Source: a virus. From it: a stretch of DNA of 64,000 bases. Made by a program: the position numbers and the translations under genes. Below the pieces are notes generated by a model. That model worked only from the letters and a program-made list of their open reading frames with translations, had not been told where the DNA came from and made no database searches. The stretch spans positions 82,770-146,769 of IMG/VR virus record IMGVR_UViG_3300033388_006651; one strand, written 5' to 3'. Below are positions 1,155 to 5,398 of this stretch, one piece after another (within the stretch, counting starts at the first letter, position 1; each line of letters opens with the position of its first letter).

Positions 1155-2754
1155 TCGTGATCAGGGTTCCGTCGAACTTCCGAAGGTCGAACCCTGTGAT
1201 CGTCTCGTTGTAGGTGGCCAGCACGTTTTTGAGGTACTGGATGGCGACCTTTTCACCAAGCAGGATGCCCTCGTCACCGTCGCTGCGGTAGTGGACGCCG
1301 GCCATGTTGCGGGCCGTGGAGAGGTTGCTGGCGAGTTTTCCGAGTTCGGAGCTGACCGTGATCACATCGACCACGGCAGGGGTGGTGATGGCGGCAGCAT
1401 CAAGCTCGGCCATCGTCTCGTCTCCGGTGATGGATTCCACGATTTTGAAGGTCCCGCTGTCCAGGTCCTTCATCAGGGTGTCGCCGTCGAAGAACGCCTT
1501 GAGGAGCGTCGCACAGGCCCCAGAAAGGACGGCATGGCCTGCCGGGTAACTCGGGTGCGTAGGACTACCCTCCGGGTACATGAGCGGCAGGAGGTACGTG
1601 GCGCTTCCGTTGAGGGTGTTGGCTGCCAGCATGTTGGCTGTGGTCGTTGCACCCAAGACGGAGGCATCCAACAAGTAGTCCTGGGCATCGTCGAGGGTGA
1701 AGTGGACGCGACCGGCGTAGACCTCTGGACGTAGACGCATGTGGGCCACCCACTTCTGCCGCCACGCTGCTTTGAGTGCCAGCTCTGAGACGTGAAAAAC
1801 GCGGTCGAGAATCTCGCCGGCTCCGAGAGTGACGAAGCCGTCCTCGTTTGCCAGGACGGGGATGTTCGGGTCCAGGGGCGCACCGTTCTGGAGCAGGATC
1901 TGCGCTGCGTTGAAGAACGCCAGGCCAGGAGGGTCGTTGTGAACGTAGCTTCCGAGTACTCGAGGAGAGAACGCGCGTTTGCGGGTGCCCGTCAGGTTGG
2001 CGCCGTTTGGCGTGATGCCATTTTGGATGTCGAGCCACCCTGCGGTGGTGATCGATGGAGCCGCATCGCTCTCGGTTTCGATCTCCTGGGCGACGGCGAT
2101 GTTCCCCATGTTGAAATCGTGCAGGAGAAATTGGCTGACGTACGGTCCCACCGTTTCGTCGTACCCAGTTCCACGAAAGAGCGTCCCGCGCGTGACGACG
2201 CCACCGTCTTTGGGCCCCATGAACGATCCAGCCAGGGCGTTTAGATCGGTGAGGAGGGAGGTGACGACGGGTTCTTGAGATGTGGTGCCGTTCTGGATTG
2301 CGTTGAACGATTCGTCACGAAGGAGGGCCATGCCGTAGACCTCGATCATCTCGCCACCGGCCTCGGTAGAGGTCATGGACGGGGCTGCTGGCATCGAGAC
2401 CGAGTAGGCATCTGCGCCGCTGAGGCTGAACGCCAGAGCGGCCTGGGGATTCGTCAATTTACGAACCGCACCGGTGGCACGCACGATGCGATCGAAGTAG
2501 CTCTGGTCCCCGCTGCGGAGGGCCACCTCCATATTCACGAAGTTCTGATCGGTGACTTCGCCGTAGCTGTTGTGCGGCAGTGTTTTCGAGTAGAGCGCCG
2601 TGCGGTAGAGAGTGCCGGCGCGATCGATGACGAGGGCCCGATCGTTGTTGAGCGGTTGGACGACATCTGCCTCTGACCGTTGGAAATTTGCCCGGTCGAT
2701 ACGGAAGTCGTATGGGAGCCCGGTGGGGTCGGAGGGATCTTGGCGCTTCGGCAT
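1138..2754 (-). CDS. Vanadium-dependent haloperoxidase (algal/cyanobacterial VBPO type, PAP2 superfamily)
   Basis: KAAWRQKW..HMRLRPE, HPSYPAGHA and RNMAGVHYRSD vanadate motifs; SKTLPHN and GPYVSQF. Confidence 0.92.
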   Translation of the reverse strand: MPKRQDPSDPTGLPYDFRIDRANFQRSEADVVQPLNNDRALVIDRAGTLYRTALYSKTLPHNSYGEVTDQNFVNMEVALRSGDQSYFDRIVRATGAVRKLTNPQAALAFSLSGADAYSVSMPAAPSMTSTEAGGEMIEVYGMALLRDESFNAIQNGTTSQEPVVTSLLTDLNALAGSFMGPKDGGVVTRGTLFRGTGYDETVGPYVSQFLLHDFNMGNIAVAQEIETESDAAPSITTAGWLDIQNGITPNGANLTGTRKRAFSPRVLGSYVHNDPPGLAFFNAAQILLQNGAPLDPNIPVLANEDGFVTLGAGEILDRVFHVSELALKAAWRQKWVAHMRLRPEVYAGRVHFTLDDAQDYLLDASVLGATTTANMLAANTLNGSATYLLPLMYPEGSPTHPSYPAGHAVLSGACATLLKAFFDGDTLMKDLDSGTFKIVESITGDETMAELDAAAITTPAVVDVITVSSELGKLASNLSTARNMAGVHYRSDGDEGILLGEKVAIQYLKNVLATYNETITGFDLRKFDGTLITIMPDS

Positions 2755-2805
2755 CTCACTTGAGTCCCGGCTATAGGAGGGTCAGTGGTTTTCTGAACAA
2801 AACCC

Positions 2806-2833
2806 TTGACTCTGCGTCTGAGGCGAGTACATT
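2806..2833 (+). promoter_or_regulatory. sigma70-like promoter for the tRNA cluster
   Basis: TTGACT-N16-TACATT about 80 nt upstream of tRNA-His. Confidence 0.55.
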
Positions 2834-2911
2834 CGGTTTCAAGGTAACTCTCATGTTGACGCAAGCACATACCCAGCTCCCCGATGCGGGAGCCGACTAC
2901 AACACCATCAT

Positions 2912-2988
2912 GGTGTCCGTAGCTCAGTTGGTAGAGCGTTCGCTTGTGACGCGAGAGGCCGCGGGTTCAAACCCCGTCGGACACCCCA
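2912..2988 (+). tRNA. trnH: tRNA-His(GTG) with encoded G-1 and CCA
   Basis: G-GTGTCCG/CGGACAC-C-CCA acceptor; anticodon loop TTGTGAC; GGTTCAAA T-loop. Confidence 0.93.
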
Positions 2989-3073
2989 AAAACCGCACTT
3001 CCGTGCAGTTTAGCTAGCCGAGGCTTCCCTTCGTCTTTGGGACGAAGTGGAGCTTCGGCACGCCGCATTTTAT

Positions 3074-3148
3074 GCCGCGGAAGCTGACTTGGTACGCAAG
3101 CGCTGGACTGAAAATCCGGAGGTGACAGTTCGATTCTGTCCCGCGGCA
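3074..3148 (+). tRNA. trnF: tRNA-Phe(GAA), no encoded CCA
   Basis: GCCGCGG/CCGCGGC acceptor; CTGGA-CTGAAAA-TCCGG anticodon arm; GTTCGATTC. Confidence 0.85.
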
Positions 3149-3170
3149 CAACCTAGAAGGAAACAAGACA

Positions 3171-3365
3171 ATGTCACTCATGTTCACTAATTACGATCGC
3201 CACACCATGTGCACGCATGCTGGCCTCCTTGGTCAAAAGGCCAAGGACGGAACCCAGACGTGTGTTCGTTGCGGCAAGACGGTTCTCCCTGCAGATGTGG
3301 AGCGCTTTACGAGGCCGGCTGGACGCAAGTCCGGTCGGCAGACTCAAGGCACTACCCCTTTGTAG
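3171..3365 (+). CDS. Small hypothetical protein (CxH...CxxC, possible Zn ribbon)
   Basis: AGAAGGA RBS upstream; 64 aa; 3' end overlaps the next tRNA. Confidence 0.45.
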   Translation: MSLMFTNYDRHTMCTHAGLLGQKAKDGTQTCVRCGKTVLPADVERFTRPAGRKSGRQTQGTTPL

Positions 3366-3432
3366 CTGAGATAGATTCAAGCGCGCGGTTGAAGCCCGCG
3401 AGACTCGGGTGCGAGCACCGACTGAGGGACCA
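3356..3432 (+). tRNA. Atypical tRNA-Phe(GAA) with CCA
   Basis: CCCTTTG/CTGAGGG-A-CCA acceptor with a mismatch; CGCGG-TTGAAGC-CCGCG anticodon arm; non-canonical TGCGAGC T-loop. Confidence 0.65.
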
Positions 3433-3450
3433 CAACGGTAGGATAGCAAC

Positions 3451-3966
3451 ATGATTCTCTGCACAGACGTGGACTACAACGACGACGGAACAGCCGTCGC
3501 CGCAGGCGTGACTCTCGAGAACTGGTCGGACGACCACGCGCTCGAGGAGCTCGTGGTGCACGTCGATGCCGTCGAACCTTACGTGCCCGGTCAGTTCTAC
3601 AAGCGAGAACTTCCGTGCATCCAAGCCATCATGGCGAAGCTGACTGGTGTCAGCCTCGTCATCGTGGACGGGTACACGTGGCTCTCGCCAGGACGCCCAG
3701 GTTTGGGAGCCCACCTGTGGGGTGATCTTGGGGGCTCGATCCCAGTGGTCGGTGTCGCCAAGGCGTACTTCAAAGATACGACGGCCACCGAAGTGTTCCG
3801 AGGTACCAGCAAGCGCCCGCTGTATGTGTCAGCCCAAGGGATGGACGACAGCGACGCGAGCATCCTGGTGCGCAACATGGCCGGGCGCAATCGGTTCCCG
3901 GAGATGCTCAAGCGCGTGGATCACCTGTGCCGGGGCCATGTTCTCCCGAAAGCGACGGCGTCATGA
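3451..3966 (+). CDS. nfi: Endonuclease V
   Basis: DVDY, PYVPGQFYKRELP, IVDGY, GLGAHL, IGVAK-like VGVAK and RGTSKRPLYVS motifs. Confidence 0.92.
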   Translation: MILCTDVDYNDDGTAVAAGVTLENWSDDHALEELVVHVDAVEPYVPGQFYKRELPCIQAIMAKLTGVSLVIVDGYTWLSPGRPGLGAHLWGDLGGSIPVVGVAKAYFKDTTATEVFRGTSKRPLYVSAQGMDDSDASILVRNMAGRNRFPEMLKRVDHLCRGHVLPKATAS

Positions 3967-4168
3967 TCTCGGGATTCGGCGGGTTCGGCGGTGCCGCGCC
4001 TGCAGCCACCCTCGTCACGGGGGATCACTGTGGTGCCGTGAGCACCGCATAGAGGTTTTCTGGAACTACAAGCGTGGAAGCCTCTCCTGGGAGGATTTCG
4101 TGCAGTACTACGGAGTTGACCCGGAAAGAGGCTCGATCGTTTGTCGGGAACCCGGGTATAAGGACTGA
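3938..4168 (+). CDS. Hypothetical protein (CxxC...CxxH)
   Basis: Fills the gap between nfi and the tRNA-like gene; start uncertain. Confidence 0.35.
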   Translation: MFSRKRRRHDLGIRRVRRCRACSHPRHGGSLWCREHRIEVFWNYKRGSLSWEDFVQYYGVDPERGSIVCREPGYKD

Positions 4169-4172
4169 CCAC

Positions 4173-4278
4173 GCCCAAGTAGCTCAGTGCAAGTCTGCGG
4201 TCACACGTTTCTTGCTTGGTAGAGCGGTCGGCTTAAACTCCGATGCGTCGAAGGTTCAAATCCTCTCCTTGGGCACCG
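4173..4278 (+). tRNA. tRNA-like gene with a 27-nt D-loop insertion and 8-nt anticodon loop (TAA at positions 34-36)
   Basis: GCCCAAG/CTTGGGC acceptor; GCTC/GAGC D-stem; GTCGG/CCGAT anticodon stem; GGTTCAAATCC T-arm; ends ACCG. Confidence 0.7.
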
Positions 4279-4284
4279 AAATTA

Positions 4285-4310
4285 TGTAAATTCTTCCCCC
4301 GCTCCGTGTA
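4285..4310 (+). promoter_or_regulatory. Class-A motif TGTAAA-N14-CGTGTA
   Basis: Ends 8 nt before ATG 4319. Confidence 0.7.
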
Positions 4311-4318
4311 CCTCTCAG

Positions 4319-4543
4319 ATGATTAAGATCGACCATACACAGCCGAATGCTGAGAAACTGGTAGGGCGTCTCGCGAACTGGAAGTTCAAGTCAGCCCTCC
4401 AGCACCTGGAGGGTCAATCGGACGAAGTCGTGGAGACGGTGAAGACACTCTCCACCATGTTCAGCAACTCGGGATGGTTTGAGGGCAACATGGGGCATCT
4501 AGTTAGTGTGGTCGTTCAGACCCTCGTGGAGTCCCACGAATGA
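4319..4543 (+). CDS. Hypothetical protein
   Basis: ORF directly behind the class-A motif, followed by RNase Z. Confidence 0.65.
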   Translation: MIKIDHTQPNAEKLVGRLANWKFKSALQHLEGQSDEVVETVKTLSTMFSNSGWFEGNMGHLVSVVVQTLVESHE

Positions 4544-4552
4544 GACAACATC

Positions 4553-5398
4553 ATGGAGAAATTAACTGTAGCAGGCGTGACCCTCGAAGGGTTCGCGCAA
4601 GGAGGGTGGCAGACTTCGATCTACTGCCCCGAAGTGAGAGCGGTTTTTGACGCGGGCTACGCCTTGCGTGCAAACGTAGAGAACTACTTCATCACGCACA
4701 GCCATCCCGACCACATCATGGCGCTCCCCTACATTGTGGGGCGCCGGGCGGTGTCGGCTGAGCGCAAGAAGATGATCATCCACGTCCCCGAGCAGATTCG
4801 GGAACTGACCGCTACGGTGATCCTCGGAAGCTGTCGCCTCTTCGGCGATCGGTGTCCCGAGGACTTCGTCGAAATCGTCGGGGTCAAGCCCGGCGACTCG
4901 ATCACGCTCAGCAAGCAGCACAGCGTCCAGGTGCTGCCTACGGTTCACCGTGGGCCCACCGTGGGTTACGTGGTCATGCAGCACACCCAGAAGCTCAAGC
5001 CCGAGTACGAGGGCATTGAGGGGCGTGAGCTGGGCCGTCTCCGTGGGGAGGGGGTCGAGATCACCGCAGCCCGTGTGTCGCCGATGCTGGCGATCCCTGG
5101 TGACACCCAGATCGAGTTCCTGCTCAACAACGAGCTGGCTCGAAAGGCCAAGGTCCTCGTTCACGAGGTCACGGTCTGGGACGAGGGGTTCAACAACGTC
5201 GAAGGCTGCCGTCGCTACGGCCACACGCACATCGCGGAGATGGTCGAGCACGCGCACAAGTTCGAGGGAGAGGCTCTCGTGCTTTGCCACCGCTCTATGC
5301 GGTGGACCCGGAAAGAGATCGAGGCGATCGCTCGTCGTCGGTTCCCAGAAGAGGTGCTCAAGAAGCTCCACTTCTTCGACGGTGGCGATCGCCTGTGA
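4553..5398 (+). CDS. rnz: tRNase Z short form, TM-type (metallo-beta-lactamase fold)
   Basis: THSHPDH, KLKPEYEGIEGRE...GVEIT exosite, PGDT, HEVT, GHTH and LCHRS motifs. Confidence 0.85.
   Translation: MEKLTVAGVTLEGFAQGGWQTSIYCPEVRAVFDAGYALRANVENYFITHSHPDHIMALPYIVGRRAVSAERKKMIIHVPEQIRELTATVILGSCRLFGDRCPEDFVEIVGVKPGDSITLSKQHSVQVLPTVHRGPTVGYVVMQHTQKLKPEYEGIEGRELGRLRGEGVEITAARVSPMLAIPGDTQIEFLLNNELARKAKVLVHEVTVWDEGFNNVEGCRRYGHTHIAEMVEHAHKFEGEALVLCHRSMRWTRKEIEAIARRRFPEEVLKKLHFFDGGDRL

Follow-up and report, generated by a model that had tools for sequence, protein, structure and literature searches.

The window, that is, the whole 64,000-nt stretch of DNA analyzed here (positions 82,770 to 146,769 of the IMG/VR virus record IMGVR_UViG_3300033388_006651), contains a tRNA-like gene with an extra hairpin in its D-loop, located between a tRNA cluster and a tRNase Z gene. 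The record, of 146 kb, is only some 28% complete. The features of the locus, in window coordinates, are as follows.

2913 to 3432, plus strand: upstream tRNA cluster, with the same gene order in relatives
2913 to 2988, plus strand: tRNA-His of this cluster
3074 to 3148, plus strand: tRNA-Phe(GAA) of this cluster
3356 to 3432, plus strand: aberrant Phe-like tRNA of this cluster
4157 to 4162, plus strand: −10-like box TATAAG, 10 nt 5' of the mature 5' end; putative promoter
4173 to 4278, plus strand: tRNA-like gene with the extra D-loop hairpin
4173 to 4179, plus strand: 5' strand of the acceptor stem, GCCCAAG, forming 7 of 7 Watson-Crick pairs with CTTGGGC at 4268 to 4274
4180 to 4181, plus strand: U8 A9, just 5' of the D stem
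4182 to 4185, plus strand: GCTC of the D stem, pairing with GAGC at 4222 to 4225
4189 to 4215, plus strand: 27-nt D-loop hairpin, inserted between AGU and UUGGUA
4216 to 4225, plus strand: remainder of the D-loop, UUGGUA (with G18 G19), and 3' strand of the D stem, GAGC; GGTAGAGC is invariant in the family
4227 to 4244, plus strand: anticodon arm, 5-bp stem GTCGG/CCGAT, with the 8-nt loop CTTAAACT at 4232 to 4239
4245 to 4249, plus strand: 5-nt variable loop GCGTC, invariant in the 14 members of the family
4250 to 4267, plus strand: T arm, with GAAGG, the loop TTCAAAT and a 6-nt 3' strand, CCTCTC, that has one bulged base
[quoted passage not shown]
4285 to 4314, plus strand: motif TGTAAA...CTTCC...CCGTG, found in most members before the next gene
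4553 to 5398, plus strand: Thermotoga-type tRNase Z gene (PDB 7xgt, RNase ZS1, E = 1.5e-40; Thermotoga maritima 1ww1, E = 2.6e-11)

All the elements listed in the initial annotation of this locus were found by reading the sequence: a perfect 7-bp acceptor stem, intact D and anticodon stems, the 27-nt D-loop insert bounded by GCAAG and CTTGC, an anticodon loop of 8 nt, a short variable loop, a bulge in the T stem, and an end that reads ACCG instead of ACCA. The window sequence forms a cloverleaf with stems of 7, 4, 5, and 5 bp and has the core tertiary nucleotides U8, A14, G18 G19, T54 T55 C56, and A58. Its hairpin is made of an outer stem (GCAAG/CTTGC) and an inner stem (GCG/CGT) closed by the loop GUCACA. 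Folded as a single sequence, the window copy is not significant on its own (z = −1.15). An open reading frame overlaps the element (4074 to 4289), but it is not a gene, since the insert lengths found in relatives disrupt the frame.

The intact element was not called by ARAGORN, and it had no match in Rfam even at E values up to 10. Deletion of positions 4189 to 4215 leaves a normal 9-nt D-loop, and ARAGORN (default settings) then called a 78-nt tRNA-?(Leu|Phe)(taaa).

We found 14 distinct homologues, in uncultured relatives, using contigs that encode homologues of the tRNase Z together with an independent DNA-pattern scan of metagenomes. Loci L191 to L207 come from sediment samples (the Ga0307375-Ga0307380 and Ga0180431-Ga0180436 series). 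The identities of their tRNase Z proteins range from 95% down to 59% across the 14 homologues. Deposited phage genomes had no blastn match to the locus, scans of IMG/VR with single proteins (EndoV-like and tRNase Z) retrieved no relatives, and the DNA pattern of the family had no match in IMG/VR and one in GTDB genomes. Other patterns were discarded: the loop pattern CGGCTTAAACTCCG gave mostly chance matches, TGGTAGAGC-N6-CTTAAACT had a single match (L175), to an unrelated tRNA-like gene, and GGTAGAGCGG-N3-4-CTTAAAC matched only coding sequences.

The D-loop hairpin is found at the same spot in 13 of the 14 homologues, as unrelated sequences of 13 to 31 nt with covarying stems. Its five basal pairs have all changed on both sides, and the folding energies in the 13 homologues have a mean z of −2.9 relative to shuffles. 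What these inserts have in common is that they are stable helices, of any sequence and often capped by UUCG. The stretch from AG to GGUA measures 16, 21, 23, 25, 30, or 34 nt depending on the member, lengths that keep no reading frame; hence, it is not coding. A derivation of the hairpin from the Y-RNA-like CACAAGC module located just upstream of the window had no sequence support.

When the 13 aligned homologues were compared with the proposed five-helix structure, 97.3% of the cells were paired, versus 84.8 ± 1.1% in shuffles (none of 500 reached the observed value) and 31 to 50% in controls with slid partners. The covariation score was 0.402, versus 0.147 in shuffles, and 10 of the 26 pairs showed double changes. 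RNAalifold recovered the acceptor, D, hairpin, and T helices unaided. Changes are spread over the structure: the acceptor pair 6-67 goes from A-U to G-C in 8 of 13 members, the anticodon stem (63 of 64 cells paired in 13 members) has compensatory changes at 28-42, 29-41, and 31-39, and the T-stem pair 51-63 appears as A-U, U-A, and G-C. The apparent invariance of the acceptor 5' strand, the D arm, and G26-G27 is partly due to the metagenome search pattern, which required them. Four features are invariant in all 14 members and were imposed by no search pattern, namely, the one-base bulge of the T stem (a 3' strand of 6 nt), the GCGUC variable loop, A73, and the upstream GTATAA. The bases that follow A73 are CCA in 5 of the 13 hairpin-bearing members and CCG, CCT, CCC, CTG, or CTA elsewhere, including the homologue that has no hairpin.

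That homologue (L329) is the only one that lacks the insert, a situation that the initial annotation had associated with a pseudo-tRNA, but it is otherwise fully conserved. The hairpin therefore counts as a lineage-specific gain in a gene that was unusual to begin with, and not as a sign of decay. A decaying, functionless pseudo-tRNA, one of the four options raised at the outset, would be missed by standard finders and be absent from some relatives, as this gene is. Nevertheless, compensatory changes are seen in four helices across the 14 conserved homologues, none of which has lost the bulge, the variable loop, the discriminator, or the upstream box, so we rejected decay as the least probable of all the explanations considered. 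Judging from this conservation, positions 4173 to 4278 are a functional gene for a small RNA derived from tRNA, kept by a clade of uncultured giant phages.

The tRNA origin is supported by Rfam model RF00005 (gathering score of 29 bits), which is matched by the hairpin-less homologue with 47.7 bits and by another (L190), with 21 nt between AG and GGUA, with 33.2 bits; the window copy falls below the gathering score because of its 27-nt insert. Since homologues match this model, the family descends from tRNA. Without its hairpin, the gene is most similar to the tRNA-Lys(CUU/UUU) and tRNA-Phe(GAA) genes of the phages themselves (77 to 82% identity), which are equally close, and descent from tRNA-Phe specifically could not be shown. 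Standard annotation overlooks genes of this type; hence, the tRNA repertoires of phages are undercounted.

Restoration of a normal D-loop by deletion would also be expected if the gene were an intron-containing tRNA, in which the hairpin is excised and the halves are ligated into a tRNA of 75 to 78 nt, and the cellular D-loop inserts found with the same D-arm sequence are introns of tRNAs from DPANN and other archaea. We consider this highly improbable, only slightly less so than decay. By eye, there is no bulge-helix-bulge at the junctions, where a continuous helix base stands instead of 3-nt bulges separated by 4 bp, and group I introns are far longer than these inserts. The helices maintained by selection are stable and UUCG capped, as expected of a permanent arm, and splicing would leave the bulged T stem and the 8-nt loop unrepaired. 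In addition, the phage looks bacterial, with a sigma-70-like promoter, GH25 muramidase genes in the neighborhood, and one relative that was binned with a Gemmatimonadota MAG.

The anticodon loop is enlarged in 11 of the 14 members: it has 8 nt in 10 of them and 9 nt (with a 4-bp stem) in 1, whereas the remaining 3 have loops of 7 nt. The initial annotation had read TAA after U33. However, the invariant base of the loop is best read, by comparison with yeast mitochondrial tRNA-Thr1, as U33, and therefore the triplet of the window is AAA and not UAA; the UAA register would place a C at position 33 in five members. Read after the invariant U33, the triplet is AAA in nine members, AAG in two, GAA in two, and GAU in one, with A35 also invariant, A34 in 11 of 14, and C at position 37 in 10 of 14. 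The loop changes quickly even on the same stem, as two members with identical anticodon stems (L193 and L197) differ at 4 of 7 loop positions, while the neighboring tRNA-Phe keeps GAA in all eight distinct copies and the tRNA-His was called with GUG in every case. An elongator would be expected to combine a 7-nt loop and U33 with a purine at position 37 and to have the same anticodon in all orthologues, a combination that is not found. Two of the three 7-nt loops are CUGAUAC, with A37 after U36, and CUAAGGA, with G37 after G36.

Several other assignments of the loop were discarded. A class II bacterial tRNA-Leu(UAA) does not fit a variable loop of 5 nt in all members, and UAA needs the C33 register. 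ARAGORN reported the hairpin-less copy as tRNA-Pyl(cta), but this requires a shifted stem with a mismatch and leaves no conserved U33, and a YUA nonsense-suppressor anticodon was rejected on the same grounds; standard-code open reading frames of at least 100 amino acids cover 86% of the phage. Pairing between the anticodon loop and the internal loop of the hairpin could be drawn in one homologue (L192) but not in another (L204), and it is sterically implausible.

Phe, Leu, and Ile tRNAs all use A73, and the main alternative to the mimic proposed below is a specialized decoding tRNA, somewhat doubtful in our view, that is charged with one of these amino acids according to its triplet and serves the ribosome. 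Its AAA would read UUU, in the 8-nt register of yeast mitochondrial tRNA-Thr1, or its UAA would read UUA/UUG, and its extra arm and bulge would protect it from host enzymes that target tRNAs. The full tRNA core, A73, and the partly encoded CCA are conserved, U33 is invariant, the three canonical 7-nt loops have combinations at positions 36 and 37 typical of decoders, the hairpin-deleted copy is called by ARAGORN, and relatives score as tRNA in Rfam. Moreover, TTA is the rarest Leu codon of the phage (1.0 per 1,000 codons), so the phage could benefit from a tRNA that reads UUA. Triplet decoding with an 8-nt loop is possible in nature (PMC3113583), and laboratory suppressors with 8-nt loops shift the reading frame (PMC4238358). 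A tRNA of this type might promote +1 frameshifting in the manner of the SufJ-type suppressors, whose loop has gained a base on its 5' side, and the 8-nt loop expected for this is present in 10 of the 14 members (CTTAAACT in the window).

Against decoding, the triplet changes among orthologues on the same body, so the codon and the amino acid would change with it, and the predominance of A34 and C37 is at odds with bacterial decoders, in which both are rare. The T-stem bulge lies where EF-Tu makes contact, these phages already carry canonical tRNA-Phe(GAA) genes that would make a UUU reader redundant, and reading UAA comes at the cost of the five C33 members mentioned above. A crude scan of the 146-kb record for long ORFs overlapping in frames 0 and +1 at TTT-N found four places, none compelling. 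Thus, of the five-armed tRNA for rare TTA codons suggested initially, the five arms stand, upheld by covariation, but the decoding of TTA is doubtful given the AAA triplet and its drift.

All 14 homologues end a His/Phe tRNA cluster and are located just upstream of a Thermotoga-type tRNase Z gene, which is present downstream in every member whose contig extends that far, at 20 to 60 nt or after one small ORF (as in the window, L192, and L200). The NCBIfam RNase_Z models match the tRNase Z of the window below their cutoffs. A GTATAA box precedes the 5' end by 8 to 13 nt in every member, though the flanks differ, and GGTATAA occurs a single time in the 146-kb record. The motif at 4285 to 4314 probably belongs to the downstream gene, since it also precedes the tRNase Z gene in three contigs without the tRNA-like gene (L328, L330, and L331). 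The latter is also missing from a close relative (L179).

This arrangement could suggest a cis-acting processing or stability element similar to t-elements, in which the tRNA shape recruits RNase P and tRNase Z, the transcript is cut upstream of the tRNase Z gene, possibly with feedback on its expression, and the RNA set free by the cut does nothing by itself. There are well-known examples of ribonuclease autoregulation by way of a leader that resembles the substrate (rnc and rne). The constant proximity to the tRNase Z gene fits this model, as does the lack of an intrinsic terminator in our search between 2700 and 4700, and an unconstrained anticodon loop is what it would predict. Yet the tRNase Z gene appears without the tRNA-like gene in the four contigs just mentioned, it has its own conserved upstream motif, and in three members an ORF intervenes. 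Neither does the model explain the retention of U33, A35, the anticodon stem, the T-stem bulge, and the D-loop arm. It seems to us improbable, clearly more so than a decoding role.

Our best reading, which we hold tentatively, is that the product mimics a tRNA, being processed like one but taking no part in ordinary translation; among the four options initially proposed (a spliced tRNA, a tRNA for TTA codons, a decoy for anticodon nucleases, and a decaying tRNA), the decoy appears to be the best fitting. Transcription would start from the gene's own TATAA box, RNase P and tRNase Z would trim the RNA as they do a tRNA, the CCA-adding enzyme would complete its end, and the product would then act as a mimic instead of an ordinary elongator. 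The affinity of EF-Tu is set by T-stem pairs 49-65, 50-64, and 51-63, and the bulge would sit where EF-Tu grips the T stem, with the extra arm predicted at the elbow and a loop that mostly has A34 and a pyrimidine at position 37. Its most likely job would be to occupy or divert a factor that binds tRNAs. The leading candidate is a defense enzyme of the host that targets tRNAs, in which case the fast-changing anticodon loop may represent the contested surface. Counting against a mimic, the invariant U33 and A35 and the three textbook 7-nt loops look like those of real decoders, and close relatives dispense with the gene (L179) or with the hairpin (L329).

Alternatively, the loop could display a codon, and the RNA would be an "anti-tRNA" kissing the anticodon loops of tRNA-Lys, tRNA-Glu, or tRNA-Asp. 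Read as codons, AAA, AAG, GAA, and GAU correspond to Lys, Lys, Glu, and Asp, and the tRNAs for these amino acids are the classic targets of anticodon nucleases; the phage itself has four tRNA-Lys and two tRNA-Asp genes, and no tRNA-Glu was called. Those tRNAs would be shielded or sequestered by the pairing, and the RNA itself would stay clear of EF-Tu and the ribosome thanks to its bulged T stem and extra arm. The triplets are explained equally well if they drifted in single steps from an ancestral GAA, and for this reason we give the displayed codon a very low probability, well below that of a cis-acting element.

Whatever the role of the RNA, this locus extends the short list of noncanonical tRNAs by a natural and well-supported architecture, in which a fifth arm that behaves like an expansion segment of the D-loop is found alongside an 8-nt anticodon loop and a T stem with a bulge, and which giant sediment phages have kept over a long divergence. 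If it is a mimic, it would represent a move at the RNA level in the conflict between phages and bacterial defenses over tRNAs, and a natural scaffold accepted by the tRNA-processing enzymes yet outside translation. As a decoder, it would be an example from nature of a tRNA with five arms and an expanded anticodon loop, relevant to the engineering of the genetic code.

A parallel architecture was found in a second family, in unrelated AT-rich phages (loci L003 to L057; ca. 25 distinct sequences on contigs of up to 322 kb). Like the tRNase Z-linked family, it has a covarying hairpin after AGU and before UUGG, an 18-nt anticodon arm with an 8-nt loop (NNYGAAAN) enlarged by one base 5' of position 33, and a variable loop of 5 nt; the triplet is GAA, of the Phe type, and A73 is present. 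It differs in that the T stem has no bulge, GAA is nearly fixed, the hairpins measure 15 to 17 nt, and there is no tRNase Z nearby. The folds proposed by ARAGORN for its members, Pro(tgg), Thr(ggt), and ?(ccct), were mismatched and inconsistent from one member to another, and the fold with the D-loop hairpin was preferred.

In the literature searched, we found no description of a tRNA with a D-loop hairpin in phages or bacteria. The family shares with canonical class I elongator tRNAs (RF00005) the stems, U8, A14, G18 G19, the TTC of the T-loop, the 5-nt variable loop, and A73, but it departs from them in the D-loop arm of 13 to 31 nt, the T-stem bulge, the anticodon loop of mostly 8 nt, and a triplet that varies among orthologues. 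A natural counterpart of the loop is that of yeast mitochondrial tRNA-Thr1(UAG), a tRNA duplicated from another tRNA and with the 8-nt loop UUUUAGGU (PMC3113583). In both, the extra base is 5' of U33, the register here being NYU-AAA-CY. Unlike the family, tRNA-Thr1 has an anticodon that is fixed and followed by a purine at position 37, its role in decoding is proven, and a synthetase is dedicated to it; it has neither the D-loop arm nor the T-stem bulge. The +1 suppressors SufJ, sufD, and SufB2 (PMC4238358) also have 8-nt loops, and in SufJ the extra base is likewise on the 5' side; however, they arose by mutation in the laboratory from tRNAs that are normal in other respects, and their four-base target is defined, whereas in the family the triplet varies, position 37 is mostly C, and the crude scan of the 146-kb record found no frameshifted target gene.

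The D-loop introns of DPANN and other archaeal MAGs resemble the hairpin, since they too are 20- to 35-nt interruptions of a tRNA gene that is normal elsewhere. Their removal depends on the archaeal splicing endonuclease, which cuts at bulge-helix-bulge motifs. The gene studied here has no motif of this type and belongs to a phage that looks bacterial, and its insert has been selected as a stable hairpin. For RNAs that are tRNA shaped but do not serve as ordinary decoders, there are several precedents. The staphylococcal cell-wall tRNA-Gly binds EF-Tu weakly, changes in the T stem being a known route of EF-Tu escape, and the t-elements of plant mitochondria are non-decoding tRNA-like RNAs. To our knowledge, the D-loop arm, the bulged T stem, and the 8-nt loop are all missing from these two and from the tRNA-Other of Bacillus cereus, and phages encode none of the three RNAs. 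tRNA-Other is a tRNA-like RNA that does not decode (PMC3399842). With no shared sequence family implied, what the three have to offer as a parallel is a tRNA shape under selection in RNAs that decode poorly or never.

The IMG/VR record to which the window belongs, as its 3' portion, is 146,769 bp long (G+C, 59%). Since CheckV puts the completeness of this record at ~28%, it represents only part of the genome of a very large phage. ARAGORN finds 20 tRNA genes on this record. The tRNA-like gene lies among the following features:

2913-2988, + strand, tRNA-His of the upstream cluster
3074-3148, + strand, tRNA-Phe(GAA), found by Rfam only
3356-3432, + strand, aberrant Phe-like tRNA, found by ARAGORN only
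3451-3966, endonuclease V-like ORF, partial coverage of the EndoV profile
3968-4168, + strand, small ORF in a different frame, directly after the endonuclease V-like ORF
4173-4278, + strand, tRNA-like gene
between the tRNA-like gene and the gene at 4553-5398, 74-aa ORF
4553-5398, + strand, metallo-beta-lactamase-fold gene

The last gene is predicted to be a Thermotoga-type tRNase Z. The closest solved structures are rice RNase ZS1 (7xgt, E 1.5e-40) and the Thermotoga maritima tRNase Z (1ww1, E 2.6e-11), and the NCBIfam RNase Z models match the protein at scores under their cut-off. Many of its homologous proteins (P0001-P0120) are labeled anti-Pycsar Apyc1 (PF23023) by precomputed Pfam and ribonuclease Z by JGI. 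By sequence the protein is nearest to the TM-type tRNase Z and rice RNase ZS1, its activity (tRNase Z versus Apyc1) being putative. The small ORF ends in YGVDPERGSIVCREPGYKD and a stop codon, 4 bases 5' of the tRNA-like gene, and a family search with it gave no match.

On reading the sequence, all the features listed at 4173-4278 by the initial annotation were present. The acceptor stem has 7 bp with no mismatch, GCTC pairs with GAGC in the D stem, and a 27-nt hairpin-forming insert (4189-4215) splits the D-loop (AGT...TTGGTA). The anticodon stem (5 bp) closes the 8-nt loop CTTAAACT, the variable loop is 5 nt long, the 3' strand of the T stem numbers six bases, and CCG follows A73. Neither ARAGORN nor Rfam calls the intact element, but once the 27 nt are deleted, ARAGORN at default thresholds calls a 78-nt tRNA. 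Single-sequence folding of the element is no better than that of its shuffles (z -1.15); the argument is therefore a comparative one, built on its relatives.

Homologues were obtained by two routes. Metagenome contigs fetched through numerous tRNase Z protein relatives carried the element at the corresponding position, and JGI metagenomes scanned independently with a DNA pattern yielded 17 further loci. The set comprises 14 different sequences (the window, L177, L180, L188, L190-L193, L195, L197, L198, L200, L204, and L329), while the gene is absent from the relatives L179, L328, L330, and L331. In 13 of the 14, a hairpin stands between AG-N and NN-GGUA, the AG-to-GGUA stretch spanning 16 to 34 nt. 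The hairpin sequences are unrelated, several have a UUCG cap, and each is more stable than its own shuffles (mean z, -2.9). The long hairpin of the window, with an inner stem and a GUCACA loop, recurs with compensatory changes in L177, L192, and L204. In L329 (tRNase Z identity to the window, 59%), the D-loop is an ordinary AGTTGGTA, but all the other peculiarities are kept. Lack of the insert among homologues, which the initial annotation associated with a pseudo-tRNA, is limited to one otherwise intact member. To judge from a ranking by tRNase Z identity, the hairpin would have been added later to an already unusual tRNA and then evolved like an expansion segment. The body is 77 to 82% identical to the tRNA-Lys and tRNA-Phe of these phages alike, so the ancestor could be either.

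In a MAFFT alignment of the 13 hairpin-bearing members, RNAalifold recovered the acceptor, D, hairpin, and T helices. The five-helix structure, as specified by us, has standard pairs in 97.3% of cells, against 84.8 +/- 1.1% after shuffling (0/500) and 31 to 50% with slid partners. Both sides have changed in 10 of the 26 pairs, and the extra arm covaries at each of its five basal pairs. A structure-guided parse also found 63 of 64 anticodon stem cells paired, with three covarying pairs, an alternation of A-U and G-C at acceptor pair 6-67, and covariation at T-stem pair 51-63. The covariation that the initial annotation proposed to look for thus exists, extra arm and anticodon stem included. Invariance of the acceptor 5' strand, the D arm, and G26-G27 is partly built in, as the JGI scan pattern required them. 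The informative features are those that no pattern imposed: the bulged T stem, GCGUC as the variable loop, A73, the hairpin-type insert, the enlarged loop, and the GTATAA box, each kept by every member or almost every one. This conservation excludes the decaying tRNA considered initially. An overlapping ORF (4074-4289) was also discarded, since the insert lengths break the reading frame.

The first suggestion, a tRNA from which the D-loop hairpin is spliced out, is unlikely. The D-loop inserts with the same D-arm sequence that we found in cellular genomes were archaeal tRNA introns; tRNA genes in Woesearchaeota, Nanoarchaeota, and other archaeal MAGs (L251, L255, and L273) have 21- to 34-nt inserts in the same place, presumably known noncanonical introns. 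Here, however, a continuous helix has its base at the junctions, which form no bulge-helix-bulge, stable hairpins have been favored by selection whatever their sequence, and the phage looks bacterial from its promoter type and its muramidase genes. One relative, the phage-like 72-kb contig L327 (JBDHAB010000014.1), was binned with a Gemmatimonadota MAG; it is the only GTDB contig with the family pattern, and its binning is either a host hint or an artefact.

GTATAA occurs 8 to 13 nt ahead of the 5' end in 14/14 members, with divergent flanks, and GGTATAA is unique to this site in the 146-kb record. In the subclade of the window, the box overlaps the final codons of the small ORF ending at 4168, whose 3' end has codon-like conservation in L177, L191, L192, and L204. 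We infer a putative -10 element and a nearly leaderless transcript; no intrinsic terminator was predicted in 2700-4700. Most members have a second motif, TGTAAA...CCGTG, after the element. Since this motif also stands ahead of the tRNase Z gene in relatives that lack the element, it is probably part of the downstream gene. A role of the element as a cis-acting processing signal for the tRNase Z transcript would fit the synteny but is weakened by the fact that this gene owns an upstream motif and exists without the element.

The anticodon loop has 8 nt in 10 members, 7 nt in three (L193, L195, and L197), and 9 nt in L180, where the stem is 4 bp, and it contains a single invariant U. If this is U33, the extra base would lie on the 5' side and the 7-nt members would fall in the canonical register; the triplets are then AAA in nine members (window included), AAG in two, GAA in two, and GAU in one, with C at position 37 in 10. 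The UAA anticodon (U33 U34 A35 A36) proposed initially keeps A37 but is less likely, as five members would then have C at position 33 and L195 would lack position 32. In neither register is the triplet conserved among these orthologues, whose acceptor stem, discriminator, and core are the same; between L193 and L197, the loops differ at 4/7 positions on identical anticodon stems. The adjoining tRNA-Phe has GAA in 8/8 distinct copies, and all called tRNA-His are GUG. The aberrant tRNA at 3356-3432 (odd D arm GTAGCTGAGAT..., noncanonical T-loop, CCA encoded) represents a second aberrant family, a cluster paralogue whose triplet drifts too (mostly GAA; GAU in L204 and GGA in L329).

EF-Tu reads the T stem exactly where the bulge falls. 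Considering this bulge, the arm at the elbow, the tRNA-Phe genes that the phage already has and that would make it redundant, a triplet that drifts, a loop of variable length, and A34 plus C37 in most members, we tentatively prefer a tRNA mimic to a decoder. The RNA would have to be taken for a tRNA by processing enzymes or by a tRNA-binding factor of some kind, yet not decode. A working decoder is the other remaining reading, somewhat less likely in our view; the main evidence for it is that U33 and A35 are invariant and that two of the 7-nt loops are textbook-like.

A search of IMG/VR with only the common D-arm sequence and a 15- to 45-nt gap found a second family of about 25 distinct genes (89 to 91 nt) on AT-rich phage contigs of up to 322 kb. 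Their hairpin (15 to 17 nt; a 6-bp covarying stem plus tetraloop) occupies the same D-loop position, the acceptor and T stems are perfect and covarying, and the 18-nt anticodon arm has an 8-nt loop, NNYGAAAN, with the extra base again 5' of position 33. This loop was not in the query; hence, the combination of D-loop arm and enlarged loop recurs. Unlike the present family, the AT-rich one lacks the T-stem bulge and has a different gene neighborhood. Beside it are further odd tRNA-like genes (L008:1397-1490, L010:2100-2193, L010:3696-3783, and L018:10581-10674), one type having the acceptor AGTCAGG/CCTGACT and a tandem pair of T-arm-like hairpins. An unrelated phage tRNA-like gene without D-loop insert (L175, minus strand, ~3800-3900) has CTTAAACT in its anticodon arm, which can be read with a 7-nt loop (TTAAACT) on 6 bp or with a 9-nt loop on 5 bp. 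There are also tRNA-chimeric RNAs of ~130 nt, at 81300-82100 of the record (G000:C1; about 700 to 1450 nt before the window start), L188:1197-1325, L190:287-421, and L190:637-764, with acceptor stem, T arm, and ACCA-like end, in which a long conserved insert (...ACTCGGC.AATGTC.ACAAGC...) replaces the D and anticodon arms. L190 also has a weak Rfam match to YrlA (912-1025; 23 bits, under gathering).

Our literature searches found no account of bacterial or phage tRNAs with a helical arm in the D-loop; a 2020 review of noncanonical tRNAs, in which the word "phage" is absent, describes none (PMC7609411). The only well-studied natural 8-nt loop that reads triplets is that of the yeast mitochondrial tRNA-Thr1, UUUUAGGU, which has the same register as the U33 reading here, with the extra base on the 5' side (PMC3113583). 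What the present family adds is a conserved T-stem bulge, a drifting triplet, and synteny with tRNase Z.
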